Of a stretch of DNA of 64,000 bases, positions 1 through 21,032 are shown in pieces. The translations under genes and the position numbers were made by a program. Below the pieces are notes generated by a model. It had not been told where the DNA came from. It saw only the letters and a program-made list of their open reading frames with translations, and searched no databases. Each line of letters begins with the position of its first letter. Position 1 is the stretch's first letter. The DNA comes from an uncultured Acidobacteriota bacterium (GTDB lineage Bacteria; Acidobacteriota; Vicinamibacteria; Marinacidobacterales; DATDRI01), in contig CAVONV010000023.1 in NCBI GenBank assembly GCA_963697355.1, positions 1,362,400-1,426,399 on the forward strand, in the 5' to 3' direction.

Positions 1-2610
1 CGTCGGTGCCGCATCCGACTCGCTGGGCATCGTTAACACGAAGCGTTGTCCGTCGCGAGAGATGTCGTAACCACGACCGTAGGGTGGGGCGATGTCGTAA
101 GTACCTTCAAAGAGCACCCGAGGCCTCCCCGGAAGGAGCTCGGGCTGGGTCACGATGTCCACGGCCATCATTCGCTCATCGTCACGATAGAAGAGCTCCC
201 CCCCTTTCGGATTCCACGCCGGCTCTCTTCCCCCGTCGGTCGAAATCCGCCATTTGCCGCCCGGTCCGGGAAACGGCGTCACATAGATTTCGTCGCTACC
301 GGATTCGTTCGAGACGTAGGCAAGCCAGCGGCCGTTCGGTGAAAGCGCCGGCTGAAACTCGTTGGAAGGTGTTTTGAGGAATGGCTCGGGGTTGCGTTCA
401 CCTTCCATGGGAAGCACCCAGATGTCCCACCCCGACTCGGGATCGAGGCTCTGGTGAAAGACGAGGTTCTTGCTGTCGGGAGACCACCCAAAAGGCTGCT
501 GAGCATATTCACTTGTGGTGAGGCGCTCGGCGGAACCGCTGCCATCGGCGGCTTTCCAGAACAAGTTCACGGCACCGCCCGAGCGCATGGAAGGAAAGGC
601 CAACCGTTTCCCGTCGGGACTCCAGACCGGCCAGAAATTCTGACCTTCCGAGGTCAGTGGTGTCAGTATGCCGCGTTCCATCTCATACACCCAGACCTGA
701 GAATCGCCTCCTGCTATCCACATGGCGATTCGATCGCCCTCGGGGGACAACTTTGGTCCTTGGAAGTAACGTTGCTGCAGGTCGGTCATGGGCTGAGCAC
801 TACCGTTGCGATCCACCCAAACGAGTGTCCTGCCGATCCACTGCTGCGCGCCGCTCGGCACATAAATGAGGGTGCCGTTTCTGGAGAGACTGAAATGAGC
901 GTCGCCACATCTGGTGATAGCCACCTCCTCGACGACCGGGACGGGGGCGCCGGTGAGTTCGAGCCGTTCGAGATCAAAAGGCACGGCCAGGATGGAACCC
1001 GCTTCGGCGTAAAGCAAGTGGCCGCTGAGGGCATAACGAGTGTGACTACCGCCCTCGATGAGAGTTTTTCGCTCGCCCGTTTCGAGAGACATCACCTCCA
1101 CTCGAAGCGTGCTACAAGAGCCGTCCAGGGTGCTGAAAACAGCTTCTTTCCCGCCAGGAAGAAGTTCAGGATAGGCAATATCCCACTCACCCTCTTCTAA
1201 ACGTGGGCTGATCAAAGGTTCGGGCGTCCCTCCTATCGATGAGATTCGCCAGATGCCCATACCGGATGTTTCAGCGAAAGTGTGAAAAAGAACGGTGTCG
1301 TCAGATCCCCAGCTTGCCCCTTTCATACTTTCTGGAGCGTTGCAAAGAGGCAGCGGTGGCCCGCCGGTGAGCGAAATCTTCTTGAGCTTTCCATCGGCAT
1401 GAAAGCCGAGCCATTGACTATCCGGGGAGAAGAAAGGGAACTCCCCGTTCTCCGTGCCTTCAATCGGCCGCGCTTTGAGCTCTCCTATTTCTTGCAGGTA
1501 GAGCTGAGTCTTTCCGTCCTGTTGAGCGGGGTACACCATGCGCGTTCCATTCGGCGCAATGGCAATGGAGGAGGTTTTGGCACCGGATAGTAGATACGGG
1601 ATATCTAAAGCAAACCGCATGGGAGCTCCTGAGCCAGGTTCGGTTCTTTGAATCGAAAGCCAGATGGCGAGTCCGCTTGCGAGCGCCACGATCAACCACG
1701 GTACTACGGCCCGCCACCTGCGAGCTTCCGAAACGGGCGTTGCCCCTGCCGATAGCGGTGGTTCCGTCATCGCTTCTTCGATCTCGATGCGCGCATCCGC
1801 TATGTCGTGGAGACGGCCTTGGACATCCTTGCGGAGACATCGGCGCAGCAAACTGCGGACTATCGCGGGTGTAATATGGGGCATCATCTCCCAGACCGGC
1901 TCACGCTCCACGATCTTCGCAATCGTGTCTGTGACTGTCTCGCCCAAGAAAGCTGCCTTGCCTGTCAGAGCCTCATACAGACAACACCCGAAAGCCCAGA
2001 TATCCGTCCGCTTGTCCACCGCCTTCCCACGTGCCTGCTCAGGACTCATGTAAGGAGCGGTGCCAAGAAGAACTCCGGTTTCCGTGTCATCTCTAGTGAT
2101 GGTTGGGGACTCCGACAACCCTTGGGAAGTCGTCTCTCCCGCCATTGCCTTGGCAAGACCAAAATCCAGAACCTTAACCTTCCCCTCGGGTGTCACCTTG
2201 ATATTGGCCGGTTTGAGGTCCCGATGAATCACGCCTTTCTCATGTGCCGCTTCGAGACCTTCAGCGATTTGCTTGAAGAGCGGAAGGGCTTCATCGATAG
2301 GTATGGGACCGCGCTTTATTCGCTCCGCCAGCGTTTCTCCCGGTACGTACTCCAGCGCCAGGAAGTGCACGCCATCGGACTCCTCGAGCTCGTGAATGGC
2401 GGCAATATTCGGGTGGTTCAGTGATGCGAGGAGGCGGGCTTCACGCTCGAATCGGGCTAGGCGCTCCCTGTTCTCAGAGAAAGTTGCGGGTAGGACTTTG
2501 ACTGCGACTTCACGATCCAGCTTGGTGTCCCTGGCAAGATACACCTCTCCCATTCCACCTTCGCCGATCTTCTCTAGGACCTTGTAGTGGGAGAGCGTCC
2601 GGCCAATCAT
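1..2610 (-). CDS. Hanks-type Ser/Thr protein kinase (type B) with TM segment and C-terminal TolB/WD40-like beta-propeller; 3' end runs off the window
   Basis: Absent from the ORF track because there is no stop inside the window. Manual reverse-complement translation from ATG at 2608-2610 gives [26 protein letters not shown]...VAVKVLP...HRDLKPANI...DFGLAK...SPEQ, then a hydrophobic segment and SPDG-type propeller repeats down to position 1 (...ISRDGQRFVLTMPSESDAAPT). A GGAGG SD lies 6 nt upstream. Confidence 0.8.
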   Translation of the reverse strand, partial: MIGRTLSHYKVLEKIGEGGMGEVYLARDTKLDREVAVKVLPATFSENRERLARFEREARLLASLNHPNIAAIHELEESDGVHFLALEYVPGETLAERIKRGPIPIDEALPLFKQIAEGLEAAHEKGVIHRDLKPANIKVTPEGKVKVLDFGLAKAMAGETTSQGLSESPTITRDDTETGVLLGTAPYMSPEQARGKAVDKRTDIWAFGCCLYEALTGKAAFLGETVTDTIAKIVEREPVWEMMPHITPAIVRSLLRRCLRKDVQGRLHDIADARIEIEEAMTEPPLSAGATPVSEARRWRAVVPWLIVALASGLAIWLSIQRTEPGSGAPMRFALDIPYLLSGAKTSSIAIAPNGTRMVYPAQQDGKTQLYLQEIGELKARPIEGTENGEFPFFSPDSQWLGFHADGKLKKISLTGGPPLPLCNAPESMKGASWGSDDTVLFHTFAETSGMGIWRISSIGGTPEPLISPRLEEGEWDIAYPELLPGGKEAVFSTLDGSCSTLRVEVMSLETGERKTLIEGGSHTRYALSGHLLYAEAGSILAVPFDLERLELTGAPVPVVEEVAITRCGDAHFSLSRNGTLIYVPSGAQQWIGRTLVWVDRNGSAQPMTDLQQRYFQGPKLSPEGDRIAMWIAGGDSQVWVYEMERGILTPLTSEGQNFWPVWSPDGKRLAFPSMRSGGAVNLFWKAADGSGSAERLTTSEYAQQPFGWSPDSKNLVFHQSLDPESGWDIWVLPMEGERNPEPFLKTPSNEFQPALSPNGRWLAYVSNESGSDEIYVTPFPGPGGKWRISTDGGREPAWNPKGGELFYRDDERMMAVDIVTQPELLPGRPRVLFEGTYDIAPPYGRGYDISRDGQRFVLTMPSESDAAPT

Positions 2611-2632
2611 GGAGGACCTCCACGTTGGGGTG

Positions 2633-2662
2633 AGGATAGTTCTTTGCCCCGTGAAAAGTCAA
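2633..2662 (-). promoter_or_regulatory. Conserved kinase promoter cassette (-35 TTGACT, 18-nt spacer, -10 TATCCT on the coding strand), copy 1
   Basis: Reverse complement reads TTGACTtttcacggggcaaagaacTATCCTcaccccaaCGTGGAGGTCCTCCATG. The same architecture recurs upstream of four more kinase starts. Confidence 0.5.
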
Positions 2663-2708
2663 AGGTGAGTGCAGGTAGGGAGATTTTGGGATTGTTTCTC
2701 TTTGGGTT

Positions 2709-4538
2709 TCATCCTCCATCGGATTCGACAAACTCCAACCACCGGAACCAGATCGGATGATGCTCCTTGTACCATCGCAGCACCTCGAGCAAGATGGTTT
2801 GGTGCTCCGGCGAGATAACTTCATCCGGTATCCGGTCGAAATGCACGCGGAGATGTTCCTTCGTGTGCTCCAAGGCTTCGGCACAAAGTGTTTGCAGCTC
2901 GTTGCGGATGCGGCCCGAGTCCGAGATCTTGACGGCACGGCCGCGGTAGTCTTCGCCGTAGAAGAACCGGATGAGAAGCGGATTGAAAACCAGCCGGCTC
3001 TCTTCCATGCGTTCCATGAGACGCAATGTGAATGTGATCCGTTTATCGCCAAGCGGCGTGGCGAACCTCACCGTGGTGCGATAGATATTCGGTGAGATCT
3101 CGAGGACTCCGGGTGTGCCCGAATAAGGGTCTGGCTGCATGTAGCCGCAAAGGGCGAGAACGTCCCAACGTTTCTCCGGAAAGAAGTCGTCCACCACCAT
3201 GAGCGGATGATCCAGTGGCAGACCAGCATCTCGTGCTTCGCAGATCATCTTTCGATAATCTTCGACCGTCGTATCGTCCGGCGTCTTATCGAAGAGCCTA
3301 CCCAGCTCACTCGCAAACCCGGCATGCTCGGAATCGAGGTGCATCACGCGCCTCTCCTGCTCGTAGCTGAGCTCGAAACGAGATGTGAAGACGGCCAGCG
3401 AAGCCGTTAGTCCGAGCATGTGCGTCAGGCTCGCCGCCTGCATCGCTTCCGCCGAGGCAGCATATCCATCGATCAAGAAAACGTGGTCTTGATCTTGACT
3501 ATCGTGCCAGGAGCCGACGAGATAGGTCGGAGCGTAAGTTCCAGATTCGGTGAAGGCCGTCATACCGGTAGGCAGTCTCCAGCCATCCTCCACGACATGT
3601 GCGCCTGCGCTTCGCCACTCCTCCCATAGCTTTCCAATCCGCGGAGCCCGACTCTTGCCTTGTAGAGTCCAAACATGAACATTTTCCCGACGGATACCGG
3701 GATAGGCAGCCTCGATCGCCTCCATCACCGTCGATCGTGGCGTTCGGTAGTCGAGAAGCACAGAAAGGTCCGCGGCAAGGTCCACCACTTTTTTCGGTAG
3801 AAACAATGTTCCCATGTAGCCTTCATAGGGACGGTAGATCCGAAGTGGTTGCTCGAACAGGTGAAGAATGGTCATCGGACCGGTCGAGCACTTTTTAGCG
3901 AACCGCGATGTGTTCTCCAGCGTATCCACTGCAGCGCCCCACACGGTGATTCCCGCCTTCTTGATCTCCTCGTAGAACTGGTCCCATTCGTAATCCCGAT
4001 CGTTCAGCATTCGGGCCACCCGCTCCTCGAGCCATTGCGCTACGAGCGGGCGAGCATAGATCCGGCCGAAGCCGAGCTGGGGATTCGAGCCCATCTCCGG
4101 AGTCTCACCTGCTTTGGGCATCAGTCCCTCGCCGAGGCTCACCATGATGGCGTGGTTCTCCGGCAGTTGACGCGAGGCATACCACAGACTCTCGGCTAGG
4201 ACGTATGCGGAGATGGCGTCCGCATCCTTCTTGACCTGGTTGAGCTCGGCCTTGTCTTTACCTTCACCCTCGCCGAACCGACCGAAGAGCTGGGTTCCAA
4301 ATGCCGTGGCTCCGACGGCCATGGCCATCAGTCGCTCCATTTGAGGGTTCATGAAGGAGATTTGGTTGGTGAGGCCTGGTTTCGGAACGCCCCTCAACCA
4401 CTCGATCTCGACGTCCTCGAGCCAAAGATGAAGGCGAGAGAGGATGGGGCGGGTGTCGAAGGCCCACTGGGCAATCCGGTCGCGTCCTTCGGGGTCTTTG
4501 GCGTCTGCGACCTTCGTTTCGTCGTTTTTGGACTTCAT
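2709..4538 (-). CDS. Conserved hypothetical protein (609 aa), no family recognised
   Basis: Long uninterrupted ORF with genome-typical codon usage, sitting between a kinase gene and a kinase remnant. No convincing match to FBPase (GlpX or class 3) or any other family I can name. Confidence 0.6.
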   Translation of the reverse strand: MKSKNDETKVADAKDPEGRDRIAQWAFDTRPILSRLHLWLEDVEIEWLRGVPKPGLTNQISFMNPQMERLMAMAVGATAFGTQLFGRFGEGEGKDKAELNQVKKDADAISAYVLAESLWYASRQLPENHAIMVSLGEGLMPKAGETPEMGSNPQLGFGRIYARPLVAQWLEERVARMLNDRDYEWDQFYEEIKKAGITVWGAAVDTLENTSRFAKKCSTGPMTILHLFEQPLRIYRPYEGYMGTLFLPKKVVDLAADLSVLLDYRTPRSTVMEAIEAAYPGIRRENVHVWTLQGKSRAPRIGKLWEEWRSAGAHVVEDGWRLPTGMTAFTESGTYAPTYLVGSWHDSQDQDHVFLIDGYAASAEAMQAASLTHMLGLTASLAVFTSRFELSYEQERRVMHLDSEHAGFASELGRLFDKTPDDTTVEDYRKMICEARDAGLPLDHPLMVVDDFFPEKRWDVLALCGYMQPDPYSGTPGVLEISPNIYRTTVRFATPLGDKRITFTLRLMERMEESRLVFNPLLIRFFYGEDYRGRAVKISDSGRIRNELQTLCAEALEHTKEHLRVHFDRIPDEVISPEHQTILLEVLRWYKEHHPIWFRWLEFVESDGG

Positions 4539-4589
4539 TATATGGCTGACCTCGAGAATTCCTCTTACAAGTAAGCGCCTCGAACAAAC

Positions 4590-4800
4590 GGTACCCGAAC
4601 GCCCAGAGATCGGTTCGTCCCGAGCATGACGTCCGATTCCGTAGCGTCTCTAGTCATTATCGGGGACTCTGACAAACCCTGGGAAAACGTTTCTCCTAAT
4701 ATCGCCTTCTCTCGCCCACGGTCCAACGCCTTGACATTACCTTCGGGTGTGACCTTGATGCAGGCCTGAGGTCTCGGTGAACGACGCCTTTCTCATGCGA
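4590..4800 (-). pseudogene. Internal fragment of a type-B Ser/Thr kinase (catalytic-loop/activation-segment region only)
   Basis: Nucleotide similarity to positions 2040-2260 of the kinase at 1..2610 (e.g. tctcggtgaacgacgcctttctcatg vs cccgatgaatcacgcctttctcatg). No start, no N-lobe, no intact frame. Confidence 0.45.
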
Positions 4801-4840
4801 ACCAACTACCGATTGGTTGCTCACCCTCAACTAGGTCACC

Positions 4841-5296
4841 TCACTCCTTAGCATATGCGCCGAAATCCCACTCGATGGGATGAAGGAAACTCTGGAACTC
4901 GATGGATCGGCCTTCGGGATCTTGGGCATAGAAATGATAGATCCGATACTTCGTATTTTCCTTCGGCGCCGAACGCGCGCTCGCTTCCAGCTCGTCGTAA
5001 AGCTCATCCACATCTTCCTTCTTCTCATAAAAAAACGTGATAAGTGTGTCGAGGTCGGCCTCTTGACTTTGGCAGAACCCAACGAGGAGATTCCCATACC
5101 TCAGGATCGCGCAGGTACCTTGGTCGAGCCACAGATCACACCCTATGGGTTGGATGTAGAAGTCTTTCAACTCCTCGAGCATCGTCGTCTTGAAGAAGAC
5201 CAGCCCACTGCCCTTTGCCTCGACCTCCCGACGATTCTCGGCATGCAGAATGCCAGATAGACAAACGAGTGAGACGAGAACCCACACCGGTTTCAT
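4841..5296 (-). CDS. Secreted VOC/glyoxalase-like protein (151 aa) with N-terminal signal peptide
   Basis: MKPVWVLVSLVCLSGILHA signal. The C-terminal half (YRIYHFYAQDPEGRSIEFQ) resembles the glyoxalase/bleomycin-resistance fold. Confidence 0.5.
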   Translation of the reverse strand: MKPVWVLVSLVCLSGILHAENRREVEAKGSGLVFFKTTMLEELKDFYIQPIGCDLWLDQGTCAILRYGNLLVGFCQSQEADLDTLITFFYEKKEDVDELYDELEASARSAPKENTKYRIYHFYAQDPEGRSIEFQSFLHPIEWDFGAYAKE

Positions 5297-5326
5297 ATCA
5301 ACCTCCGAGCCTTTTATTTGGGCGGA

Positions 5327-5566
5327 TCACATACTCCAGGATCTTGAAACACGTATAAATCGAATCAGCATGAGGAACGCCTCTTTTGCTTCCGTTTCCG
5401 CATCCGGACGGATGTCTCCCTGGAGATAGACGACCGGCTTTCCAGAAGCCTTGGCCTCTTCAGGAGAGGTCACGCGTGGGTTGGCCAGGACGATGGCGGA
5501 TCCCACGTTGCGCAAAGTGGTGATGAACATATGGATCACGTGGACATTCTCGCTGTTCGGCTTCAT
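5327..5566 (-). CDS. Small hypothetical protein (79 aa), possibly a gene fragment
   Basis: ORF only; no motif recognised. Confidence 0.25.
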   Translation of the reverse strand: MKPNSENVHVIHMFITTLRNVGSAIVLANPRVTSPEEAKASGKPVVYLQGDIRPDAETEAKEAFLMLIRFIRVSRSWSM

Positions 5567-5774
5567 AAGATCTCCGCCACCTGACTACTGGGTCAGGCCA
5601 GCGAGGCCCCAATGTGCCGTGGCTCGTCAGCTTCAACCCGCTAAGCGTTCGACTTCGCTCTTGGTCTGAATCCCGGTAGAAACATCGGAGTCCGCCTTCG
5701 ATATTCGATGTTTCGGCTGTCCGTTCACTTCGACGATCGTCTGGCGACGCTGGCATTCAAACGCTAAAGCGGTT

Positions 5775-6791
5775 TCATTGCCTAATCCAGGCCGGTCCTC
5801 CTAGGGCCGACATCGCCCGCAATTCGGCAGGTGGATTCAATTGAAGCCTGATGGTCTTGTCCAACGACGCTGCAAGCCATTTCTTGGTATCTGTGGGTTC
5901 CCCGAGTAAGGCCAGCATCTGCTCGTCCAGTCCCTCGTCGGCCGGCGCGTCAATATAAAAGGCTCTTAGTGTTTTGGAAAAGGTTTCCATGCGTCCACGG
6001 TTGGAGGCCAGATGGATGTTTCTACCACAGGCTGCGAATGGTTGTTCTGGATGGAGATTTCCGCCGATCGCATCCAGAACGACTTGTAGGTTCTCGACGA
6101 ATCTCGAATGACAGGGCCACAGCATGTCGATGGCAAGGCCCAAAGAAAGCTCGGCATCATCCCCGTTCTCGGTATCGTGAATAAAGGTTCGAACGGTTGT
6201 TCGCCAGAACGCTTCATGTTCTTTGTAGCGTACCGGACATTCGTCACGATAGGCGACGTCGTATTCACCTCCACTCAAGAGTAACCAGGCGTAGTGAGCC
6301 GATGGGTCATCCACCGGTCGCTGCCAATGGATCACACTACGGATTTTGTCAACGACCCTTTGGAGCTGCCACTCTTTCAGCGGCGAGCGTTCACCAAGGC
6401 GTTCGAGGATTTGAAAGGCTGGTACATGACCGATGGACCAGTCGATTTGAGAGCTTGGACATCCAGCACACCATGCCGATAGAGCGGCGCACGTGTTCTG
6501 CCAAACCGTTTCGACAGGGTGTCGCTCCCCGGGCCGACGGGTGCCCAGCCCCTTTCGGGTCTCTCCGGAGCCGATCGCTTCGAGAATATTCACGACCCAT
6601 TGATCAGCCTTGTGATGGCACAATTCGAGACCAGAAATGAGCTCACGAATTTTCGACAGGTTTGGATCGATGGGTGCGAAAGCGTCTTCCATGCGATCAA
6701 TCTGCAGGATTTCGGAATCTACGCTAAGGGCACAATTACGCCACCATGTTCTCAACGATGTCGACATCGGATCTGCTCCAAAAAAAAGCAA
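5775..6791 (-). CDS. Hypothetical protein (338 aa), no family recognised
   Basis: Long ORF with typical codon usage, located between the VOC-like gene and a kinase stub. Confidence 0.5.
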
Positions 6792-7081
6792 TCTCGAAGA
6801 ACTTGTTGAGCGCCATGCCCCCTGTCCGCCGTAGCCTTGGCGAAGGCGGATGTCGTGGATGGCAATGATGTTGGGTGGTTGAGCGCGGATGCAGACCTGG
6901 CCTCCTGCTCAAAGCGCCGCAGTCGTTCGGGACCGGTGGCAAGCTCCTCCCGAAGCACCTTGATGGTCACATCCCGTCCCCGCTTGTGGTCCTTCGCCCG
7001 GTAGACTTCTCTTATCCCACCCGAGCCGAGAAGGGAAGTGATGTCGTAATGGCCGAGTCGGGTGCCGGGTTCGAGGCTCAT
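6752..7081 (-). pseudogene. N-terminal stub of a type-B Ser/Thr kinase (subdomains I-IV, then out-of-frame sequence)
   Basis: [29 protein letters not shown]...VTIKVL...[15 protein letters not shown], then a non-kinase tail. It starts immediately after the stop of the deleted type-A gene at 7092. Confidence 0.6.
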
Positions 7082-7091
7082 GTTCTGACCC

Positions 7092-7555
7092 TCACATCAT
7101 GCCGAGCTTCCTCTTTGCTTCTTCCACTCGCTCGCGGTCCATGTCGCCGTCTTTCCAGTACTCGTGGAAGCGGCGGTAGTACTCGCGGGCTCTGCCCATA
7201 TCGCCCCGGTTCTCGTGGATCGTGCCCAGGAAGTAGAAGCTGCGGACATAGGGGAGGGGCGACCAAAAGCGCTCAGTGGTGCTTTCGATGATACGCTCAA
7301 ACCATATGACTGGGACAGGTCCGTCATCAATATGTCCGTGATGCCGGTGCGGAGCCAATCGAGCTCCGGGTCTCCCTTTGTAGTCTCGAAGAGAGCACGG
7401 CGATGGACGGTTTTGCCACACGACCTTTCTGGAGGGAGAACTTTGAGAGCTACTTCGCGGTCAAGCTTTAGTTTAACGGCACGGTAGACGATGCCCATGC
7501 CGCCTCGGCTGATCTCAGAGAGGATTTTGTAATGCGAGAGAGTTCGACCCATCAC
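7092..7555 (-). pseudogene. Internally deleted derivative of a type-A kinase-TPR gene (N-terminus, one middle block and C-terminus retained)
   Basis: Frame 1: [41 protein letters not shown], then DPELDWLRTGITDILMTDLSQS (matches [22 protein letters not shown] of the 10462..13441 gene). Frame 2 ends [57 protein letters not shown], matching the C-terminus of the 989-aa paralog. Confidence 0.65.
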
Positions 7556-7577
7556 GGAGGACCTCCACGCTGGAGTG

Positions 7578-7607
7578 AGAATAGTGGCTTTCCGATGGGA
7601 AAGTCAA
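7578..7607 (-). promoter_or_regulatory. Conserved kinase promoter cassette, copy 2 (TTGACT, 18-nt spacer, TATTCT)
   Basis: Reverse complement reads TTGACTttcccatcggaaagccacTATTCTcactccagCGTGGAGGTCCTCCGTGATGGGTCG. Confidence 0.45.
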
Positions 7608-7755
7608 AAGAGGGAATACGAGCGAAGAGGAACGTCATGTGAGCGTTCACGTGGTCAGTCAGTTGGTGGCACCTAACTTTTCAACCTGACCAACCGGGTC
7701 AACGTGGGCGAGCCCTCGGCTAACGTTTGATTCGAGTCAGTACTACCTGGACGGC

Positions 7756-9045
7756 TCATGAGGGGTGAGGTCGCGGACACCTCGACCTCCGATTCCGCTC
7801 CAGGCGCAAATCGGAGTCCGCCCCAACTTCTAGTCCGCTCGAGCTAGCCGCCGATTTGAACAACTCTTGCCACGCGGTACAAATCGTCATCGAGAGAGGA
7901 AGGGTTGAAGGCCGCTTCGGTCGATTTACTGACAATACGTCAGCAGGCGAAATGCTCCTCAACCGCGCGATCGCGCTTTCGAGCGTCGATTCCTGCTTGC
8001 AGAAGCAAAACCGTGCGAATCCTGTAGCCGGCTGGTTCGCGTAAAACGCACCGAAGGGAACGGCGGACACACCGGCCTCGCTGGTGATGTGACGGCAGAA
8101 CTGTTCGTCCGTGTCGGCGAATCCAAGCGGTCGATAATCTGCGTTCAGAAAGTAGGTCCCCTCGCAGCTCGCGACGCGCATGCCGACGGAGACGAGACCG
8201 TCGCGCAGTAGATCACGTCTCGCCTGCATGTCGCTCTGCAGATCGGCGAAGTAGCCGTCATCCTTGCGCAATCCATAAGCAACGGCCCGTTGGAGGTTAG
8301 GCGGCGTGGCGAAGGTCAGAAACTGATGGGCTCGTCCGATAGCGGTTAGAATCTCCGGCGGCGCCGTGACGTAACCGACCTTCCATCCGGTGAGAGAAAA
8401 GGTCTTGCCGGCGGATCCGATGCGCGCACAGCGTTCGCGCATGCCGGGCAGAGTCATCAACGGCACGTGGGTCCGTCCGTCGAATACGAGATGCTCGTAG
8501 ACCTCGTCGCAAACAGCAAAGGCGTCGTGACGCCGAAGTAGGTCGGCCAACGCCTCGAGCTCTCGGCGCGAGAATACCTTCCCCGATGGATTCATCGGTG
8601 TGTTGAGCAAGACCAGTTTCGTTCGATCCGAAAAGGCACCGGCGAGCGCATCGACCGGTAGCTCCCAGTCCGGCGGTTGAAGTCGAATCGGCACCGCCAC
8701 GGCACCGGCCCGTCGAATGATCGGAACGTAGCAATCGTAAGCCGGCTCGAACACGATCGCCTCGTCTCCGGGATCGAGAAGACCGAAAAGACAAGCGGCC
8801 AGTGCCTCGGTGGCTCCGGACGTGACACCGACTTCGATGCTCCAGTCGACTTCCAGATCGTAGAAGCGGCGGTTGTGCTCGGCCACGGCCTGTCTGAGCT
8901 CCGGGACACCGAGCATGGGCGGATACTGATTCGGCTGGTCTTCGAGCGCTTCGGCGGCGACGCGCCGAACATCGTCGGGACCGTTGCCGTCGGGGAAGCC
9001 TTGCCCCAGGTTGATCGCGTCGTGCTCTCGGGCGAGCCGCGACAT
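7756..9045 (-). CDS. PLP-dependent aminotransferase, class I/II (methionine/kynurenine-aminotransferase-like); N-terminus shortened at a fusion junction
   Basis: MSRLAREHDAINLGQGFPD...SAGKTFSLTGWKVGY. The usual N-terminal ~15 aa are missing: in frame upstream the sequence reads *SHRIKYLAEYGTTVFEV-MSRLA, with a TGA lying inside the kinase remnant. Confidence 0.8.
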   Translation of the reverse strand: MSRLAREHDAINLGQGFPDGNGPDDVRRVAAEALEDQPNQYPPMLGVPELRQAVAEHNRRFYDLEVDWSIEVGVTSGATEALAACLFGLLDPGDEAIVFEPAYDCYVPIIRRAGAVAVPIRLQPPDWELPVDALAGAFSDRTKLVLLNTPMNPSGKVFSRRELEALADLLRRHDAFAVCDEVYEHLVFDGRTHVPLMTLPGMRERCARIGSAGKTFSLTGWKVGYVTAPPEILTAIGRAHQFLTFATPPNLQRAVAYGLRKDDGYFADLQSDMQARRDLLRDGLVSVGMRVASCEGTYFLNADYRPLGFADTDEQFCRHITSEAGVSAVPFGAFYANQPATGFARFCFCKQESTLESAIARLRSISPADVLSVNRPKRPSTLPLSMTICTAWQELFKSAASSSGLEVGADSDLRLERNRRSRCPRPHPS

Positions 9046-9059
9046 GACTTCGAATACGG

Positions 9060-9593
9060 TGGTGCCATACTCTGCCAGATACTTGATTCGGTGGCTTCAT
9101 CGTGCGCGACCTCTGAGATTGAGATGTTGGCAGGCTCAAGGTCTCGATGCTTGACGCCCTTCTCATGAGCTGCTTCGAGACCTTCCGCGATTTGCTTGAA
9201 GAGTGCAAGAGCCTCATCAGTAGGAATGCTTGGCTCGCCGGAGCCTTCCGCCTCCGCCGAGGCTTCGGCGGACGAGCGGCGAAGGCGGCGGCCTCGCTTG
9301 ATGCGCTCTGCCAGAGTCTCTCCCGGCACGAACTCCAGTGCCAAGGAATACACACCATTGGATTCCTCGAGTTCGTGGGTGGCGGCGATGTTGGGATGAT
9401 TGAATGAAGCGAGCAGTGTAGCTTCACGCTCGAATCGGGCAAGACGTTCTTTGTTCTCGGAGAAAGTTGCAGGCAGGACCTTAACAGCGACTTCGCGATC
9501 CAGCTTGGTGTCTTTGGCGAGATACACCTCTCCCATGCCACCTTCGCCGATCTTCTCGAGGACCTTGTAGTGGGAGAGTGTCCGGCCAATCAT
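9060..9593 (-). pseudogene. Truncated type-B Ser/Thr kinase (N-lobe plus catalytic loop only); catalytic-loop Lys replaced by Glu
   Basis: [41 protein letters not shown]...NHPNIAA...HRDLEPANISIS, then the kinase sequence stops at ~9065 where the aminotransferase gene begins. It also carries an RRLRRSSAEASAEAEGSGEPS insertion. Confidence 0.7.
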
Positions 9594-9614
9594 GGAGGAC
9601 CTCCACGTTGGGTG

Positions 9615-9644
9615 AGGATATGACCTTTCGGAACGGAAAGTCAA
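9615..9644 (-). promoter_or_regulatory. Conserved kinase promoter cassette, copy 3
   Basis: Reverse complement reads TTGACTttccgttccgaaaggtcaTATCCTcacccaaCGTGGAGGTCCTCCATGATTGG. Confidence 0.5.
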
Positions 9645-9789
9645 TGAGGGCGTAGAGCGAGAGACCTTTGTCGATGTTTCAGACCCAGCGTCCTCTGCTT
9701 GGCGAATTCAGACCCTTCGACATCCTTCCTTTCATCGGTGGCCGGACGGAGCTATCGCGCTGTTCGCCTAGGGATTCTCCGACCGGGTC

Positions 9790-10131
9790 TCAGGCCTCGT
9801 GCGCAACGGTGAAGATCGCTGTGGGATCGATATACACGCTCCATGAACCGACGAATTCCTTGCCTGCATCGGTTCCGATGAAACCCAACATGGCGTCCAA
9901 GTCCGATACTTCAATCTTGGCGACGTACTGGTAGGGCGGTCGAACCGGCATTTCCCCCTCGGGTTCGGAAACCGCAGGCCCCAGAACGTTGTCGATCTTC
10001 CATGTCTGGAACGACGTACACCACGGTGCACCCCTGATCCCGGGAATTTTCGTTTTGGTGAGATAAGCATCGTACTCCTCAGACTTCTGGCCTTCCTTCA
10101 GACTGTAAACGGCAAAAAGAGTTGGCATCAC
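9790..10131 (-). CDS. Small hypothetical protein (113 aa), possibly an EthD-like dimeric alpha/beta-barrel
   Basis: AGGAGG SD upstream. N-terminus MMPTLFAVYSLKEGQKSEEYDAYL...IPGIRG loosely matches the EthD-family pattern; this is a weak call. Confidence 0.45.
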   Translation of the reverse strand: MMPTLFAVYSLKEGQKSEEYDAYLTKTKIPGIRGAPWCTSFQTWKIDNVLGPAVSEPEGEMPVRPPYQYVAKIEVSDLDAMLGFIGTDAGKEFVGSWSVYIDPTAIFTVAHEA

Positions 10132-10196
10132 ACACCTCCTTTATTTGACGCGATTTGCCCAGTGAGACCCTGTACGATATTTGTCCATTCCATGGC

Positions 10197-10328
10197 CTAT
10201 TTTTCTTGTTCCTCTCGCCGTTGTTCTTCATCAATCGGCCTTTCGGCTCTGCGCTTGTTCGCGAAGTGAAGATAGGCCGGCAGGATGACACACGCGAAGA
10301 TTGCGATGAGGATCAATGCAATCTCCAT
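10197..10328 (-). CDS. Predicted 43-aa single-pass membrane peptide (below the ORF-track size cutoff)
   Basis: AAGGAG SD 5-6 nt upstream of ATG at 10326-10328. It encodes MEIALILIAIFACVILPAYLHFANKRRAERPIDEEQRREEQEK: a hydrophobic helix followed by a charged tail. Confidence 0.35.
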   Translation of the reverse strand: MEIALILIAIFACVILPAYLHFANKRRAERPIDEEQRREEQEK

Positions 10329-10387
10329 CTGACTCCTTTCGACACAACACGGTTATGCCCTTCAAGTCTCGTGTCCTGGGGCCGGTT

Positions 10388-10465
10388 GGCGAGATAAATC
10401 TCTCCCTTTCCACCTTCGCCGATCTTCTCTAGGACCTTGTAGTGGGAGAGTGTCCGGCCAATCAT
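10388..10465 (-). pseudogene. 26-codon N-terminal stub of a type-B kinase fused to unrelated sequence
   Basis: ATGATTGGCCGG... encodes [26 protein letters not shown], then non-kinase sequence. Its ATG overlaps the TGA of the upstream type-A gene (ATGA). Confidence 0.6.
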
Positions 10466-13441
10466 AACTCTAGCTTCCTTCCTGCTTCTTCCACTCGCTC
10501 GCGATCCATGTCGCCGTCTTTCCAGTACTCGTAGAAGCGACGGTAGTACTCGCGGGCTTTTTCCATCTCGCCGCGGTTCTCGTGGATCTTGCCCAGGAAG
10601 TAGAAGCTGCGGACGTAAGGGATGGGCCACGGGATGCGTTCATTCGTGCTTTCGGTGACGCGCTGGAACCAGTGCGCTGCATTATCTTCATCTCCGCGAT
10701 TCCAGGTAGGCCTTGGCGAGAGAGAACCAGATGGGGACGTGTTGAGGGATGCGGAGGTCGTGATGAACGCGAAGAAAGCCTCGTGGGTGAAGCATTGATT
10801 GAGCAATTTCAAGTTCGTCAACAGCCTTAGTGATGTCGCCACGGATCATGGCTAGCTCCCCCAGAAGACGGTGATAGCGTCTTTTCTCTTTTTCGGTGGG
10901 AAGCGATGCTGTCCTTTGTCGGAGCTCTTGCAGGGTTTTCTCCGTCTCCTCCCATTGACCCAGCTTCGCGTACGCGAGTGAAACGAGAAAAAGGCCTTCC
11001 CACTCCGGAAAATTACCTTTCCCTTCTCGTTGTGCTTCCCGGGCTTGTTCCAGCGCACGAGCTTCATTGCCTTGCTCGAGAAGAACGTCCGCCGCCATAA
11101 TCCGGGCCTCAGCAGTGGTGAGTTGTGGATCTTCGTAAGCATTCACCGCCTGATCGATTTGAGTTAAAGCCTCGTGGGACCGACCGTGGTAAAGGTGAAG
11201 TCTGGCGAGGCAGCGCGATCCCGACCACTTTAGTCTTGGGTCGTTCGAATCGACTGCCTGTTTCGCCGCGCTCTCGGCCAGTTCCCACTTCTCGCGCAGA
11301 ACGAAAACGTGCCATCGGCCAAGCTGAACCTGAGGGTCAGGGAGAATGGACTCTGATGTCTGAAAGGCTTCCAGTGCCTGGTCGAGTTTTCCCCAGCGGA
11401 TGAAATGCTGGCCGAGTCTCTGATAGCCGGCGGCACCGTCTGGGTGTTGTGCCAAGTAGCCTTGAAGGATCTCGTATCCCTTTTCGAATTGCCCTATGCA
11501 AGAGTAGCAAATCGCGAGGTTATCGTATGCGCCAACGAATGCGAATTTTCGCCGTATGGCTTCCTCATAGTGGTCGATAGCATCGTCGTAGCGTTCAAAG
11601 TGGCGATAACGTAAAGCTAAGTTGTTGCGCACAACATTGTCGTCCGGATAAATCTCCAACGATTCTTCCAAAGTCTTAAAGGCGCGCTCGTATGTTTCTT
11701 CCTTCAATGCATAGTAGCTGCCCTCGACATAATAGCGATCGCGTAATGGCAGACGATCTGCGTCCTCGACAGCTTGCCGGCGATATTCTTCGCGTAACTT
11801 GTATTGGCCTATGTTGCCGTACATAGAGGAGAGATTGATGCGGGCCCGGGCAAAGTGAGGGTCCACTTCCAGAGCTTTCTCGAAAAGAGGGATGGCCTCC
11901 CTGAACTGCCCACGAGAATCTAGTTTCACCCCCTCCACATAGTACCGGTAGGCCTCGAGAGAGGAGGTGGTCACATCCTGTATGTATCTATCAAAATCGG
12001 CTTCCGCAGCCTCAGGGATCTCGAAATCTGTCTTGATGCGTCGGGTCAGATCATCCACCATTGAGAAGATGCTCGATTCACCGATCCCTTCGGCTTTCTC
12101 CGTGGTTAGAATCTCCCCGCTGGTCACGTCCTGGACGCGGATGTTGATCCGAACATTGTCTCCGGCTTTCATGAAGCTTCCGAGAATCACCGTATCGGTG
12201 TTTGCTTCTCGAGCCACTTCCTGTACGACCTTGAGCGAAGTGATCCGTTCGTCCAGCCGGTTCATGTCGCTTAGGATTTGATAAAGACGATCCGTACTAA
12301 GCACGGTCAGGTTCGGCGACTGGGAGAGGTCCGTCACCAACATGTCGGTCAAACCGGTACGGAGCCAGTCGAGTTTCGGATCTCCAGAGGCGTTTTCAAA
12401 ATAGAGCACGGCAATCGAGGGTTTAGAGCCAGGAGAAGGCACTGGCTCCAGAGGTGAAGTTTGGGGTCGCGAAACGAGCCATCCAATGATCAACACAGCT
12501 ATGACCCCAGCCACAGCGGCGAGGAGACCGAACTTACGACGGGGCCCGTAGACGACCGGAGAGACAGAGCCTGATTCAAGGTGGCGTCGCGCGGACCGAA
12601 GATCGATCACAGTATCGTGGATAGTCTGATATCGCTCCCCTGGCTCTTTGGATAGGCACTTGTCGACTATGTGTTGGAGTTCGAAGCGTGTGTCGTCCGG
12701 TACGTTCGATCCCAAATCGGACAGTCTTGGAGCCGCATCGTTCAAGATAGCATGGAGCGTATCCAACCCACTCTTGCCCTCAAAAGGAAGCCGACCGTTC
12801 ACCATCTCGTGCAGCACAATCCCGAAGCTGAAGATGTCGCTCCTATGATCGACCTTTTGTCCTCGCGCCTGTTCAGGCGACATGTAGGAAACGGTCCCCA
12901 TAACCTTGCCCGGATCCGTTTCGCCGTTCCGCGTGAGGGTCTCGATGTCGCTCCCTTCCCCGGCTAAAGGCTCTATGAGTTTGGCTAGGCCAAAATCGAT
13001 GATCTTGGTATGACCGTCCTCGGTCACCATGACGTTGGCCGGTTTCAGATCCCGATGGACGATGCCTTCATCATGAGCTTTGGCAAGGCCTTCAGCGATG
13101 TCAGTGGAGATTTCGAGAGCACGGCGAAGAGGCACGGGGCCTTTGGCAATCGTGTCACGGAGTTGCTCTCCCCGGATCAGCTCCATCGCAATGAACGTGA
13201 CGCCGTCGGTCTCGTCTATCTCGTAAACCACCCCGATGTGAGGATGCTCGAGCTTCGCCGCAGCCTTGGCTTCCTGGACGAAGCGTCGCTTGCGTTCGGA
13301 ATCGGCAACGAGATCGGGCGGAAGAACTTTGAGGGCAACCTCGCGGTCGAGCTTCAGATCGAGGGCACGGTAAACGATACCCATGCCGCCTCGACTGATC
13401 TCAGAGAGAATTTTGTAATGCGAGAGGGTGCGCCCGATCAT
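10462..13441 (-). CDS. Hanks-type Ser/Thr kinase (type A) with TM segment and TPR repeats; apparent single-nt frameshift near 10695
   Basis: The 917-aa ORF (10688..13441) begins [42 protein letters not shown] and carries [15 protein letters not shown] and TPR repeats. The conserved C-terminus ([55 protein letters not shown]) continues in another frame in ORF 10462..10842. The shift occurs at CTGGAATCGCGGAGATGAAG. Confidence 0.75.
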
Positions 13442-13463
13442 TGGGGACCTCCGCTTGGATGGA

Positions 13464-13493
13464 AGGATATGGCTTTTCGGAGAGCAAAGTCAA
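13464..13493 (-). promoter_or_regulatory. Conserved kinase promoter cassette, copy 4
   Basis: Reverse complement reads TTGACTttgctctccgaaaagccaTATCCTtccatccaagcGGAGGTCCCCAATGATCGG. Confidence 0.5.
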
Positions 13494-13646
13494 AGCTGGA
13501 CAGGGACGCTCCGATCCACGTCGTTCAAGCTACCGCCGGATGCTCGAGCCTGACGACAACGTGTGCGAAGGCCCGCGCCGGTCGTGACGACAGCTCTTCG
13601 CTATATCTCGGAGTATGAGCCATGCCGAGGAAGGAAGCGGAGCTGC

Positions 13647-16470: not shown

Positions 16471-16818
16471 TCAGACACCACCGTTAGCGGGTTTGGTGAG
16501 AAGCTGCGACGATCTACAGCCTGCGTCCGATGGATGATAATGGAGTCAGCTTGTCGGGGCAAACCATTCACCTGTTCTCCCTCCAACTTGGAAAGAGGGA
16601 GGAAATGTGGGCCTTTTGTCTATTGACTCTTATGAGCGACCTTCAGAGAGACGGCCACCTCAGCCATGAGGACATCGCCGCCCTCATCCTGGGCGAGCTC
16701 GAGTCAGAATAGGAAGAACGTGTTTCTGAGCATTTGGAACAATGCTCGATCTGGGTGGCTTGGCTGGCTGACGTTGGCATAGCAGACAGCTCCGAGTCAG
16801 AGCTTGCTATGCTGTTCA

Positions 16819-17700: not shown

Positions 17701-17862
17701 GCCCCTAACCAACACGCTGTTCCTTGTTCTCGGCCATCTCGCGGGGCAGGACTTTCAGTGCCATTTTGCGACTGAGTTTCGTGTCATCGGCGACGTAGAC
17801 TTCCATTCCACCTTCGCCGATCTTCTCGAAGACCTTGTAGTGGGAGAGAGTCCGGTCAATCA
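17701..17862 (-). pseudogene. 53-codon N-terminal stub of a type-B kinase directly after the type-A gene
   Basis: [52 protein letters not shown]. Its ATG overlaps the TGA of the 989-aa gene (GTCATGATTGACCGG). Confidence 0.6.
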
Positions 17863-20829
17863 TGACGCTAGCTTCTTTCTCGCTTCATCCACCCGCTCGC
17901 GATCCATATCGCCGTCTTTCCAGTACTCGTAGAAGCGGCGGTAGTACTCACGGGCTTTTTCCATCTCGTCGCGGTTCTCGTGGATCTTGCCCAGGAAGTA
18001 GAAGCTGCGGACGTAGGGGATGGGCCACCAAAGGCGCTCGGTGGTGCTTTCGGTTATGCGCTGTAGCCACTCTGTGGCTTCTTCGTCATCGCCTGCCGCT
18101 AGGTTGGCCTTCGCGAGGGAGAACCAGATGGGAACGTGCCTGGGGAACACTCCTCCAAGCTGGGACGGGATGCCCCGTTCCGGAAGGAAAGAAATTGCCT
18201 GATGTAGCTCGTCTATCGCCAGCGGAATATTCCCCTGAAGTAGAGCAAGCTCACCGGCAAGATGGTGGTGGAGCCTCAACCCGATGACTGTGCTTGGTGA
18301 CTGAGATGTATGCAGTAGTCGTTCTGCGGTTTTTTCCGCATCAACCATGCGTCCGCTTATTCCCTGGACGAGTGCAACGTAAAACAGGCCCTCCCACTCC
18401 GCGACGTGTCCTTCGCGCTCTTCCGAGTCCTTTTTGGCCTGCTCCAGGGCTTGCGCCACATCGCCTTTCTCGAGAAGGACGTGAGCGGCGAAGCTGTGGA
18501 CACCCAGATCCTCAGCTTTGGGTTTGTAGTCTGATTGATTGGCTTTCTCGATGTGCCCGACCGCTTCTCGAGATTGACCGTGATAAAGTCGTGTGACAGC
18601 TCGTTGGAGAAGACCTGACCATCTCGGGTACGGTTCATTGGAGTCCAATATCCTTCCGGTTGCCGCATCGGCCAACTCCCAGTTCCCACGAAGCATGGAT
18701 ACCTGCCATCGGCCAACGCTGGCGTATATATATTCGGGCCATAGCGCTTCCGCTTTTTGAAAGGCTTGGAGTGCGTCGTCGAGCTTCCCCCAAGTGATCA
18801 GGTGGTGTCCCATATCGTAATGATTGCCGGCAATATCAGGTCTTCGGCGGAGCAGTTCTTGGAGAGCCCGGTAGGCCCTCTCGGGCCTCCCCTGAGTGTC
18901 GTAGCACTCGGCGAGGATCCAAAAAGAATTGTCGTTCATTTGTCCTATCTCGATAGCGTCCTCGATGAGCTCGATGGCCTCGTCGTAACGTTCCAGCAGC
19001 CAATAGCCTAAGGCGAGGTTTTGCCGTGCTGATTTGTGGTCCGGATAATGCCGTAGCGCTTCTCTGTAAGCGTCTATCGACCGGTCCATGGTTGGCCAGG
19101 GGAAGTAGAAATTACCCTCCACGTAGTAGCGCTCGCGAGGGGGAAGCCGGTCTGCATGCTCTAGCGCTAGCCGTGCATATTTGTGGAATAGCTCCGTGTT
19201 GCCCAGGTTGCTGTGGATCGCCCAGAGCTTGGACAAGGCCATGGCGAAGCCAGGGTCCACCTCGATGGCCTTTTCAAAAAGAGCAACGGCCTCCTTTCCC
19301 TTCTGGCTATTCTGTAGCTTCCTACCCTCCACGTAGTATCGGAAGGCCTCGATCGAATCCGTGGTCACGTTTGCTATGTTCATATCCCAGTAGATTGCAT
19401 CCGCTTGGCCCCCGAGGCTCGTGCTGACTCGCCGAGTGAGGTCGTTGACCATGGGAAAAATGCTCGAGTCTCCTTCGCCTTCCACTTTTTCTGTGGTTAG
19501 GATTTTGCCGCTTGAAGCATCCTGGACACGGACGTTGATGCGGATGCTGCTGCCCGACTTCATAAAACTGCCGAGAATTACAGTATTGGCGCCGATCTTG
19601 TCGGCAACCTCCTGGACGACCTCGAGTGATGTGATGCGCTGGTCCAGCCGGTTCATGTCCTCGAGGATCTGGTAGAGCCGATCGGTGCTGAAGACCTCCA
19701 GGTTGGGTGACTGCGAGAGGTCCGTGACCAGCATTTCGGCCAATCCAAGTCGCAACCAGTCGAGTGAGGGATCCCCGCTGATATTGTCGAAGAGCAATAT
19801 GGCAACCGATGGCCTGGTGGTTGGGGATGGAGTTAGTTCATCTTGGACGGGCGGTCGCAAGACAAGCAACGTGCCCACCAGTGTCAGTGCGGCGATTGCA
19901 CCCGTTGCTGTGTAAAGCAATGGTTTGCGACGGCCTGTTGCTACGGTAGTTGTGATAGGCCCAGATTCCAGACGCTTGCTTACATCGTGCAAGTCGATGA
20001 CCGCATCCTTGATTGTTTGGTAGCGTTTGTTCGGCTCCTTGTTGAGGCACTTTTCCAGCACATGCTGTAACTCGAATGCGGCTTGGTCGGAGACATCAGC
20101 TCCGAGAGACGGAAGCTGTGGGGTGGGTCCGCTCAGTATCGCGTTCAAAGTGTCAGCACCCGTCGGTCCACGGAAAGGCGCCTCGCCCGTGACCATCTCA
20201 TGAAGAACGATCCCAAAAGAGAAGACGTCGGTTCGGTGGTCGATGTTTTGCCCTCGGGCCTGCTCGGGTGACATGTACGAAACGGTTCCAAGGATCTTTC
20301 CGTCGGATGTTTCGTCACGCAGAGCGGTCGTTTCCTCTGTGTCGTCCGCGAACCGTGACTCCACTAATTTGGCGAGACCGAAGTCGATGATCTTCGCATG
20401 CCCCTCCTCGGTCACCATGATATTGGCGGGCTTGAGGTCGCGATGAGCGATTCCTTCATCATGAGCCTTGGCGAGGCCCTCTGCTACGTCAGTGGCGATT
20501 TCCAGTGCGCGACGAAGAGGCACAGGACCCCTGGCTATCGTGTCCCGGAGCTGCTCGCCACGGATCAACTCCATGGCAATGAATGAGACGCCGTCGGTCT
20601 CGTCTATCTCGTAAACCACCCCGATGTGAGGATGTTCGAGCTTCGCCGCCGCCTTGCCTTCCTGAACGAATCGACGCTTGCGCTCTGGGTCAGCAACGAG
20701 ATCAGGAGGTAGAACTTTGAGGGCAACCTCGCGGTCGAGCTTCACATCAACCGCACGGTAAACGATGCCCATGCCGCCTCGGCTGATCTCAGAGAGGATT
20801 TTGTAATGCGAGAGGGTTCGACCAATCAC
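17860..20829 (-). CDS. Hanks-type Ser/Thr kinase (type A, intact, 989 aa) with TM segment and TPR repeats
   Basis: GTG start. [61 protein letters not shown], then a TM helix, TPR repeats and the conserved C-terminal [47 protein letters not shown]. Confidence 0.9.
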
Positions 20830-20851
20830 GGAGGACCTCCACGCTGGGGTG

Positions 20852-20881
20852 AGGATAGTGGTTTTCGGATAGCGAAGTCAA
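20852..20881 (-). promoter_or_regulatory. Conserved kinase promoter cassette, copy 5
   Basis: Reverse complement reads TTGACTtcgctatccgaaaaccacTATCCTcaccccagCGTGGAGGTCCTCCGTGATTGG. Confidence 0.5.
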
Positions 20882-21032
20882 AAGGAGGTGAGAGTTGAGA
20901 GGAGCGGACTGAGACGGCAGATCCGTGGGTCCAGCGAAGACGGCTCTACACAAGAAACAGGTGAGCAGGCGGTGAGGTCATGCGATTCAGCTTCGTGTCA
21001 TCCGGGCAACGACAGGCTTGTGAGATGAGAAC

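Follow-up and report, generated by a model that had tools for sequence, protein, structure and literature searches.

A predicted sigma70-type promoter and Shine-Dalgarno block at the head of tandem Hanks-type kinase genes in an uncultured Acidobacteriota bacterium

Sequence analysis of the window, the 64-kb stretch of uncultured Acidobacteriota DNA under study, demonstrated that a block of approximately 55 bases is repeated immediately upstream of the start codons of five kinase genes or kinase gene remnants. The block is probably a sigma70-type promoter combined with a strong Shine-Dalgarno (SD) sequence, and it would stand at the head of every transcription unit in a family of Hanks-type Ser/Thr kinases that is lineage-specific and has expanded in tandem. 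Selection has kept the block, and paralogs exchange their 5' parts at it. Acidobacteriota-like genomes are marked by large families of such kinases carrying TPR or beta-propeller sensors. To our knowledge, the expression and diversification of these kinases are largely unstudied, and a literature search turned up no account of an upstream motif common to them.

All five copies are on the minus strand and conform to TTGACT-N18-TAT(C/T)CT-N10/11-GGAGGTCC(T/C)C(C/A)-(A/G)TG. They end at 2610, 7555, 9593, 13441 and 20829, the same starts at which a preliminary description of this DNA had reported them, and a pattern search recovered the described geometry of TTGACT, an 18-nt spacer and TAT(C/T)CT in 5/5 copies. 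The start codons are ATG or GTG, followed by ATTGG or ATCGG. GGAGG(T)-N6-ATG/GTG is present in every copy, which places a purine tract within the 5–9 nt before the start that are expected of an SD sequence. The copies are as follows.

2608..2665, minus strand: module copy 1; -35 TTGACT at 2662-2657, spacer core variant GGGGCAAAG, -10 TATCCT at 2638-2633, GGAGG at 2621-2617, ATG at 2610-2608; nhmmer E=2.6e-15; heads type-A kinase k2610.
7553..7610, minus strand: module copy 2; -35 at 7607-7602, -10 TATTCT at 7583-7578, GGAGG at 7566-7562, GTG at 7555-7553; E=1.1e-15; heads a decayed type-B kinase.
9591..9647, minus strand: module copy 3; -35 at 9644-9639, -10 TATCCT at 9620-9615, GGAGG at 9604-9600, ATG at 9593-9591; leader 1 nt shorter; E=5.8e-14; heads a truncated type-A kinase remnant.
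13439..13496, minus strand: module copy 4; -35 at 13493-13488, -10 TATCCT at 13469-13464, GGAGG at 13452-13448 followed by TCCCCA, ATG at 13441-13439; E=1.2e-14; heads type-B kinase k13441.
20827..20884, minus strand: module copy 5; -35 at 20881-20876, -10 TATCCT at 20857-20852, GGAGG at 20840-20836, GTG at 20829-20827; E=2.1e-16; heads type-B kinase k20829.

Within the window, the repetition is specific to these sites. A pattern for the promoter half (TTGACTT-N7-SRRAAR-N4-TATYCT, up to three mismatches allowed) matched the five copies and one further site in the window, a chance match with three mismatches, against 0.22 matches expected from shuffled sequence. Exact matches to the SD-to-start half, GGAGGTCCYCMRTGAT, were found in the window at the five block sites only, and an nhmmer profile of the block, run over the 64 kb, added no copy to these five. 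Multiple alignment of the five upstream regions bore out the shared block and gave it an abrupt edge: in the pairwise identity profiles, similarity sets in sharply at about -58 relative to the start codon, with identities of 0.32–0.48 upstream of -58 versus 0.62–0.84 within the block. The spacer was more variable than had been described. A conserved CCGAAA core does not hold for k2610, which carries GGGGCAAAG instead, and the wider sample of copies presented below gives the core as C-N3-C-N-GAAA.

Two protein architectures were identified behind the block by Pfam analysis. Type A consists of a Pkinase domain and a PD40/TolB-like propeller, and type B consists of a Pkinase domain and TPR repeats; the block is thus common to kinases with unrelated C-terminal halves, as the preliminary description had noted. 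Its count of five kinase genes, by comparison, was partly correct. Three of them look intact, namely k2610, which reaches the window edge, k13441, which is C-terminally truncated, and k20829, whereas k9593 and k7555 are decayed remnants.

1..2610, minus strand: type-A kinase k2610; Pkinase and PD40/TolB-like beta-propeller; at least 870 aa, running off the window.
7097..7555, minus strand: type-B kinase remnant k7555; its pieces correspond only to aa 1-57, 346-381 and 921-988 of k20829, and the kinase domain is deleted.
9063..9593, minus strand: type-A kinase remnant k9593; aa 1-157 only, with an insertion.
10688..13441, minus strand: type-B kinase k13441; Pkinase and TPR, 917 aa; an early stop, with homology to the k20829 C-terminus going on in 10737-10471.
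17860..20829, minus strand: type-B kinase k20829; Pkinase and TPR, 989 aa, intact.

The k20829 protein matches P0001, a database protein encoded on a 1.59-Mb contig, at 100% identity, and its kinase homologs in the database are labelled Vicinamibacteria and Acidobacteriia. A class I/II aminotransferase gene (7756-9045) begins approximately 18 nt past the end of the kinase homology of k9593.

Three additional kinase N-termini, detected by tblastn, lack the module.

17714..17863, minus strand: type-A kinase N-terminus remnant; its ATG overlaps the k20829 stop codon (ATGA).
10361..10465, minus strand: type-A kinase N-terminus remnant; its ATG overlaps, as ATGA, the point where the decayed k13441 C-terminus ends.
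6869..7081, minus strand: N-terminus remnant of a third kinase type, approximately 20 nt past the k7555 remnant.

The block precedes every kinase N-terminus in the window that does not directly follow another kinase. The one exception is a distinct TPR_12/TPR_10 kinase at 14086-16470, with its N-terminus at 16470, which indeed has no block, as had been reported. This distribution suggests that a gene with the block is the first of its kinase unit. In the proposed arrangement, each transcription unit would carry one block at its head, and kinases lying directly behind another kinase would be coupled to it through the ATGA stop/start overlap, with no block of their own. Because the type-A remnants at 17863 and 10465 overlap the ends of type-B kinases as ATGA, the ancestral unit looks like a block followed by a type-B kinase and a translationally coupled type-A kinase.

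The genes around the kinases are those of ordinary metabolism and transport, and an ADOP-family permease is also encoded in the window. This permease and the labels of related sequences hint at a lineage that is probably Acidobacteriota-like and from sediment; a search with an aldehyde dehydrogenase returned mixed phyla and did not help to place the DNA taxonomically. An HNH-motif ORF lies nearby in the window, as it does in three related contigs. A defence-system role was considered for the neighbouring ORFs of unknown function and was rejected, as PADLOC gave no matches.

Further copies of the block were sought in two database scans. A strict non-coding pattern was run against 185,579 species genomes and returned three matches, of which two were true (L001 and L002) and one was a chance match (L003). 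The first true match, on a Gemmatimonadota-labelled MAG contig, is a complete block before MIGQTLAHYKILEKIGSGGMG... The second is on an Acidobacteriota-labelled MAG contig, where a tandem array of kinases ends; here 115 nt separate the block from the kinase downstream, which has the third type of N-terminus. With only two true matches in this strict scan, the exact module is therefore either restricted to a lineage or variable. The metagenome scan fixed TTGACTT, a gap of 30–37 nt and GGAGGTCCNCNRTGAT, leaving the spacer and the -10 hexamer free, and it returned 11 matches (nine true and two by chance). Most of the true matches came from samples Ga0316192, Ga0316194 and Ga0316198, on contigs of coastal-sediment type. 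In 9/9 of them, the spacer was exactly 18 nt and the -10 hexamer was TAT(C/T)CT or TACTCT, and all of them then encode MIGRTLSH(Y/F/H)K. Taken over both scans, 11/11 true database copies precede kinase N-termini or remnants of these, and contig L012 holds an additional half-copy that keeps the promoter half only. Seven or eight of the 17 known copies, this half-copy included, head truncated or decayed kinases. The database copies were found with patterns derived from the block itself, and the diversity of the module is undersampled accordingly.

The features of the block were compared with those of known promoters. A canonical sigma70 promoter has a -35 hexamer TTGACA and a -10 hexamer TATAAT, separated by a spacer of 16–19 nt with an optimum of 17 nt, and an SD sequence downstream. 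The block resembles such a promoter in TTGACT (5/6), in TATCCT (4/6, including A2 and T6), in its rigid spacing and in its flexible distance downstream. TTGACT was observed in the five window copies and in 11 database copies, although the search patterns forced it in the latter. The -10 hexamers TATCCT, TATTCT and TACTCT are TATAAT-like with A2 and T6 in place, and this hexamer was left free by the search in the nine copies from the metagenome scan. The spacer is exactly 18 nt in 16/16 copies, while the distance from the -10 hexamer to the SD sequence floats between 9 and 11 nt. On this basis, the predicted promoter would consist of TTGACT, a fixed 18-nt spacer and TATCCT; RNA polymerase would probably start approximately 7 nt after TATCCT, giving a leader of just 15 nt or so with the strong SD sequence GGAGGT 6 nt before the start codon. 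A simple sigma70 scan of positions 1-20000 scored the four block copies located there at 9/12, a moderate value relative to a consensus that may not be that of the host.

Distant orthologs of the kinases provided an assessment that does not depend on the search patterns, since they were fetched without reference to the block, at protein identities of 53–56%. The ortholog L021 is preceded by TTGACA-N18-TATGCT-N12-GGAGG-N6-start, and both L015 and L016 are preceded by TTGAAC-N18-TAGAAT, with a leader beginning CACCC in L016; in L017, TAGAAT is located 16 nt before ATGATCGG. Thus, a promoter-like signal lies near the start in four distant orthologs, with hexamers nearer to the consensus, and three of these (L015, L016 and L021) share the 18-nt geometry and carry -35-like hexamers that no pattern had forced. 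No clear match to the block geometry was found in L018/L019 (53%, one gene on two contigs) or L020 (47%), and none of the distant orthologs examined contained the GAAA core. Such a pattern would be expected if the promoter is real and its exact sequence differs from lineage to lineage.

Some features of the block differ from those of a plain sigma70 promoter. The spacer contains near-invariant bases, the SD sequence is followed by its own complement, and the block, whose promoter activity is here predicted, is repeated almost verbatim before many paralogs and also in related genomes. A plain promoter leaves the spacer's near-invariant C13, C17, G19, A20 and A21 unexplained, along with the TCC(T/C)C behind the SD sequence. 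Other sigma factors were also considered. GAAA(A/C)-N17/18-CGT can be read in some block copies, but an ECF-sigma promoter (GGAAC-like -35, N16-17, CGT-like -10) was rejected: CGT is present in 9/16 copies only, with column identities of 0.4–0.7 versus 0.90 for TATCCT. A sigma32-type reading, made by eye, was likewise rejected, the -10-like bases that it needs being poorly conserved compared with TATCCT.

To determine whether selection or recency accounts for the conservation, codon alignments of the type-A and type-B kinase domains were analyzed. The two types share a protein identity of 0.47–0.48, and their identity at four-fold synonymous sites is 0.33–0.35 versus 0.28 for random sequence, which is essentially saturated; within codons 1-40, synonymous sites agree at 2/17. 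Over the 55 nt upstream of the start, the same comparison gives 0.69–0.78 identity. Block identity is about equal within types (0.62–0.84) and between types (0.74). The saturation of synonymous sites between types, together with a block identity that is no higher within types, therefore shows that purifying selection, and not recency or hitch-hiking, keeps the block, whose conservation greatly exceeds the neutral expectation. In an alignment of 16 copies (five from the window and 11 from the databases), with conservation expressed as mean pairwise identity, the -10 hexamer reached 0.90. The spacer reached 0.62 overall, with the five near-invariant positions named above, and the leader between the -10 hexamer and the SD sequence reached 0.54, no better than third codon positions (0.50). 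TCC(T/C)C between the SD sequence and the start is conserved, the CCTCC right after the SD sequence unusually so. The conserved parts of the block are thus the -35 and -10 hexamers, the surroundings of the SD sequence and a short core in the spacer, and purifying selection has acted on the two hexamers, the SD sequence and a few spacer bases since types A and B diverged.

It is conceivable that the block is a passive relic of duplication, still undiverged since tandem kinases were recently copied together with their upstream DNA. The kinase genes do form a tandem array on one strand, and their first 60–120 coding nt are 0.87–0.97 identical for k2610/k9593 and k13441/k20829 and 0.80–0.97 identical in pairs with the k7555 remnant. 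However, duplications would carry more flanking sequence than a similarity ending at -58, and the conservation is patterned on the -35 hexamer, the -10 hexamer and the SD sequence. The MAG-labelled contigs keep the block at approximately 75–82% identity with kinases that are just 45–50% identical in protein, and the 69–78% block identity between types with saturated synonymous sites already contradicts a relic, which we consider highly improbable. An origin as a MITE- or IS-like mobile promoter or as a dedicated recombination site of the shufflon or integron kind, with programmed insertion or swapping, is equally remote. The copies are numerous, junctions of mosaic genes fall inside the module (see below), in L002, 115 nt lie between the block and a downstream kinase whose N-terminus differs, the L012 copy is a promoter half only, and the HNH-motif ORF is located nearby. 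Against such an element, no inverted repeats were found beside any of the five window copies, all of which are in direct orientation, and no recombinase or integrase family was present among the 30 larger window ORFs scanned. Moreover, every copy is joined to kinase coding sequence or a remnant of it and never to an unrelated gene start, and the junctions lie at differing sites (-13, +17 and +36).

Under the promoter and SD reading, recombination would occur at the module through ordinary homology. The block and the first 12–40 or so codons (kinase subdomain I) remain almost the same from paralog to paralog and so would provide a homology patch of approximately 100–180 nt. Gene conversion and unequal recombination at this patch would generate 5' mosaics, domain-swapped chimeras and the many truncated remnants, with deletions leaving remnants that still bear the promoter. 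Mosaics were analyzed with three-sequence informative sites and a max-chi-square test with permutation. Contig L005, orthologous to the k20829 locus with 91% identity through the upstream flank, contains a patch identical to k13441 from approximately -25 to +15 (p=0.0005). In L006, the promoter and leader are k13441-like to -14, and the sequence is of type A from -12; L009 is of type B to +35 and of type A from +36 (p=0.0005 for each, with two parent sets). L010 is of type B to +14 and of type A from +20, with p=0.0005 against k20829/k9593, but the signal was not significant with k7555/k2610 as parents (p=0.29). In L011, a type-A 5' end is apparently joined to the third kinase type. The junctions are therefore located at about -13, +17 and +36, in addition to the conversion patch at -25..+15, and such differing positions are expected of homologous rather than site-specific recombination. 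In codons 1-40, the window genes k13441 and k20829 agree at 16/21 synonymous sites, against 35/84 beyond (Fisher p=0.007), a difference indicating that 5' gene conversion took place inside a single genome. Chimeric assembly could, in principle, account for the metagenome mosaics; the stretches common to both types at the junctions look short when read by eye, which makes assembly artefacts less likely.

These data bear on the description of the block as a portable, recombination-competent 5' cassette. The recombination part is supported by the significant mosaics with junctions in the module and by the L002 block before a different N-terminal type, while independent movement is not. The block has no terminal repeats, no copy precedes a non-kinase gene, and homology continues into the kinase coding sequence; since the block was never found detached from kinase sequence, portability was overstated. 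Recombination at the block is more plausibly a by-product of homology than a function.

The loci can also be compared with polymorphic-toxin or Rhs-type loci, which combine a constant N-terminal part with variable C-terminal modules and orphan fragments. Like these loci and other gene-converting paralog families, the kinase genes have a constant 5' part (promoter, SD sequence and first codons) joined to unrelated C-terminal sensor modules, and they show tandem arrays, truncated fragments beside intact genes, and chimeras. Unlike Rhs-type loci, each block-headed kinase copy has its own promoter, as predicted here, and there are no silent cassettes; the kinase fragments are N-terminal remnants and not displaced C-terminal tips. 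The kinases give no sign of toxin/immunity functions or antigenic variation, and their recombination looks incidental.

The conserved bases that a plain promoter leaves unexplained could reflect a regulatory layer shared by the family, and two forms of it were weighed. The spacer core C-N3-C-N-GAAA, or the palindrome GGAGGTCCTCC at about +10, may be the operator of a shared transcription factor and the key feature of the promoter, so that the paralogs would constitute one regulon; this is possible but unlikely. It would explain why spacer bases that RNA polymerase normally does not read, and that the search pattern left free, are near-invariant in 16 copies. The palindrome is present in 11/16 copies, and the 6-bp dyad of k7555 (CTTTCC-CATC-GGAAAG), which overlaps the -35 hexamer, is perfect, with 5-bp versions in L009 and L010. 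This dyad is lost in most copies, however, and only its GAAA half is conserved; CTTTCC-N4-GGAAAG as a maintained hairpin or dyad element was rejected, being perfect only in k7555 and lacking covariation. The core is also absent from distant orthologs of the same geometry, and no candidate regulator gene is linked to the block within the window. MerR-family promoters, in which the operator lies inside a -35/-10 spacer of 19–20 nt with a well-kept central dyad, offer a parallel in the conserved sequence (a dyad in some copies) between a good -35 hexamer (TTGACT) and the -10 hexamer and in a spacer longer than 17 nt. The block differs from them in its 18-nt spacer, in the dyad being restricted to a few copies and in having no MerR-type gene nearby. 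An operator overlaps the promoter explanation and would supplement rather than replace it.

Alternatively, control may be translational, with a modelled leader hairpin, CCAACGUGGAG-GUC-CUCCAUG-A-UUGG, masking the SD sequence and start codon and keeping kinase synthesis low or conditional, as an RNA thermometer or an anti-SD sequence does. We regard this as improbable. For both k2610 and k9593, RNAfold returned the hairpin as its MFE or centroid structure (with k2610 at -12.7 kcal/mol for the centroid), the CCTCC directly behind the SD sequence is unusually conserved, and 83.5% of the proposed-pair cells are pairable over 16 copies versus 33–54% in slid registers, although this control is biased by a structure taken from one of the sequences. 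Covariation is absent, with one double change over 15 pairs and 16 sequences and a score below the shuffled mean. The folding z-scores of the hairpin are only -0.5 to -1.5, the fold overall is no more stable than shuffled sequence (z-scores from +0.88 to -1.51), and B-type copies, including k13441, fold otherwise as MFE. Rfam gave nothing at the gathering threshold in the 64 kb, and copies 1 and 5, each searched within a 201-nt stretch, gave nothing even at E<=1. Compared with the ROSE and fourU RNA thermometers, whose leader hairpins mask the SD sequence, the block shares a leader pyrimidine stretch complementary to the SD sequence that could occlude it together with the start codon; it differs in having no Rfam match or covariation, a 3-nt loop, marginal stability and a leader of about 15 nt. 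A structured RNA is thus not supported, and masking of the SD sequence by CCTCC is possible. The spacer core and CCTCC probably contribute a shared layer of regulation, as operator or as SD-masking hairpin, although this is a conjecture. A broader version of it, which we think quite unlikely, casts the module as a socket for the whole family, regulatory as well as evolutionary: the spacer core and/or GGAGGTCCTCC would be read by a factor or an SD-masking fold that switches dozens of sensor kinases together, and an invariant 5' patch of approximately 100 nt would be kept so that new sensor domains plug in by homologous recombination. If this were true, it would represent a selected mechanism that diversifies the kinase repertoire in sediment Acidobacteriota/Gemmatimonadota-like bacteria.

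As it stands, the block is a solid and fairly ordinary example of a predicted promoter conserved among paralogs, and its novelty is modest. It provides a concrete, testable candidate promoter and ribosome-binding site for an uncultured lineage, and it documents a recombination hotspot, which explains why these loci contain chimeric and truncated kinases. A kinase regulon would be defined if the spacer core is an operator. In addition, a profile of the block, as an nhmmer or covariance model, may serve as a tag for counting first-in-operon kinase genes in metagenomes.

Two junctions in the window, both on the minus strand, join a type-B kinase to the N-terminus of a type-A kinase that has since decayed. 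The features at and between the kinase units are as follows.

17860-17866, minus strand: ATGA stop/start overlap, type-B kinase to decayed type-A N-terminus
10462-10468, minus strand: ATGA stop/start overlap, again type-B kinase to decayed type-A N-terminus
13647-16470, minus strand: distinct kinase (Pkinase plus TPR_12/TPR_10) without the block
16562-16534: promoter-like site near this kinase, unlike the block
7756-9045, minus strand: class I/II aminotransferase gene
4616-4765: 50-aa type-A kinase fragment (aa 135-184)
2709-4538, minus strand: 609-aa ORF
5775-6791, minus strand: 338-aa ORF
16819-17577, minus strand: 252-aa ORF with an HNH-nuclease-like motif

The ATGA overlaps imply an ancestral B-A kinase operon that would have been translationally coupled. 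On the related contig L015, three full-length type-B kinases stand in tandem, separated by 3-nt gaps. Another tandem array, with at least four kinases, occupies positions 1-8000 of L002 (CAVROO010000037, a MAG labelled Acidobacteriota). These kinases belong to the M(S/T)L..G.KLGPYEI type, the gaps between their genes are short or absent, and the block occurs only at the one whose coding sequence starts near 246; it lies 115 nt upstream of that start and is followed by a decayed ATGATCG... stub. The related contig L012 carries a full block on its plus strand (4848-4902), heading a kinase whose kinase domain has been deleted. About 2.3 kb upstream, a second plus-strand copy (2564-2600) retains the promoter half only, its leader and N-terminus having decayed.

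The aminotransferase gene starts approximately 18 nt beyond the k9593 kinase remnant and may now be transcribed from the putative promoter block of that remnant. The block-less kinase possesses an N-terminal extension of 76 aa, and its TPR region continues in a different frame (13647-14225), which suggests a frameshift.

Neither the 609-aa nor the 338-aa ORF, both situated between kinase units, had a match in Pfam, NCBIfam, or PADLOC. The HNH-motif ORF had no match in the Pfam search; the HNH part of NCBIfam IscB gave a sub-threshold match of 26 bits. DNA homologs of this ORF (70-81% identity) were found close to block-bearing kinases on three related contigs (L008, L009, and L014), an association that may be mere synteny.

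Two genes were annotated outside the kinase array.

30109-31518, plus strand: Fic/DOC-domain protein
31572-34283, minus strand: ADOP-family duplicated permease (870 bits; cut-off, 622)

The Fic/DOC protein matched PDC-S04 and SoFic, which are candidate defence families in PADLOC. The ADOP permease provides the best clue to the taxonomy of the window; the name of its family refers to Acidobacteria.
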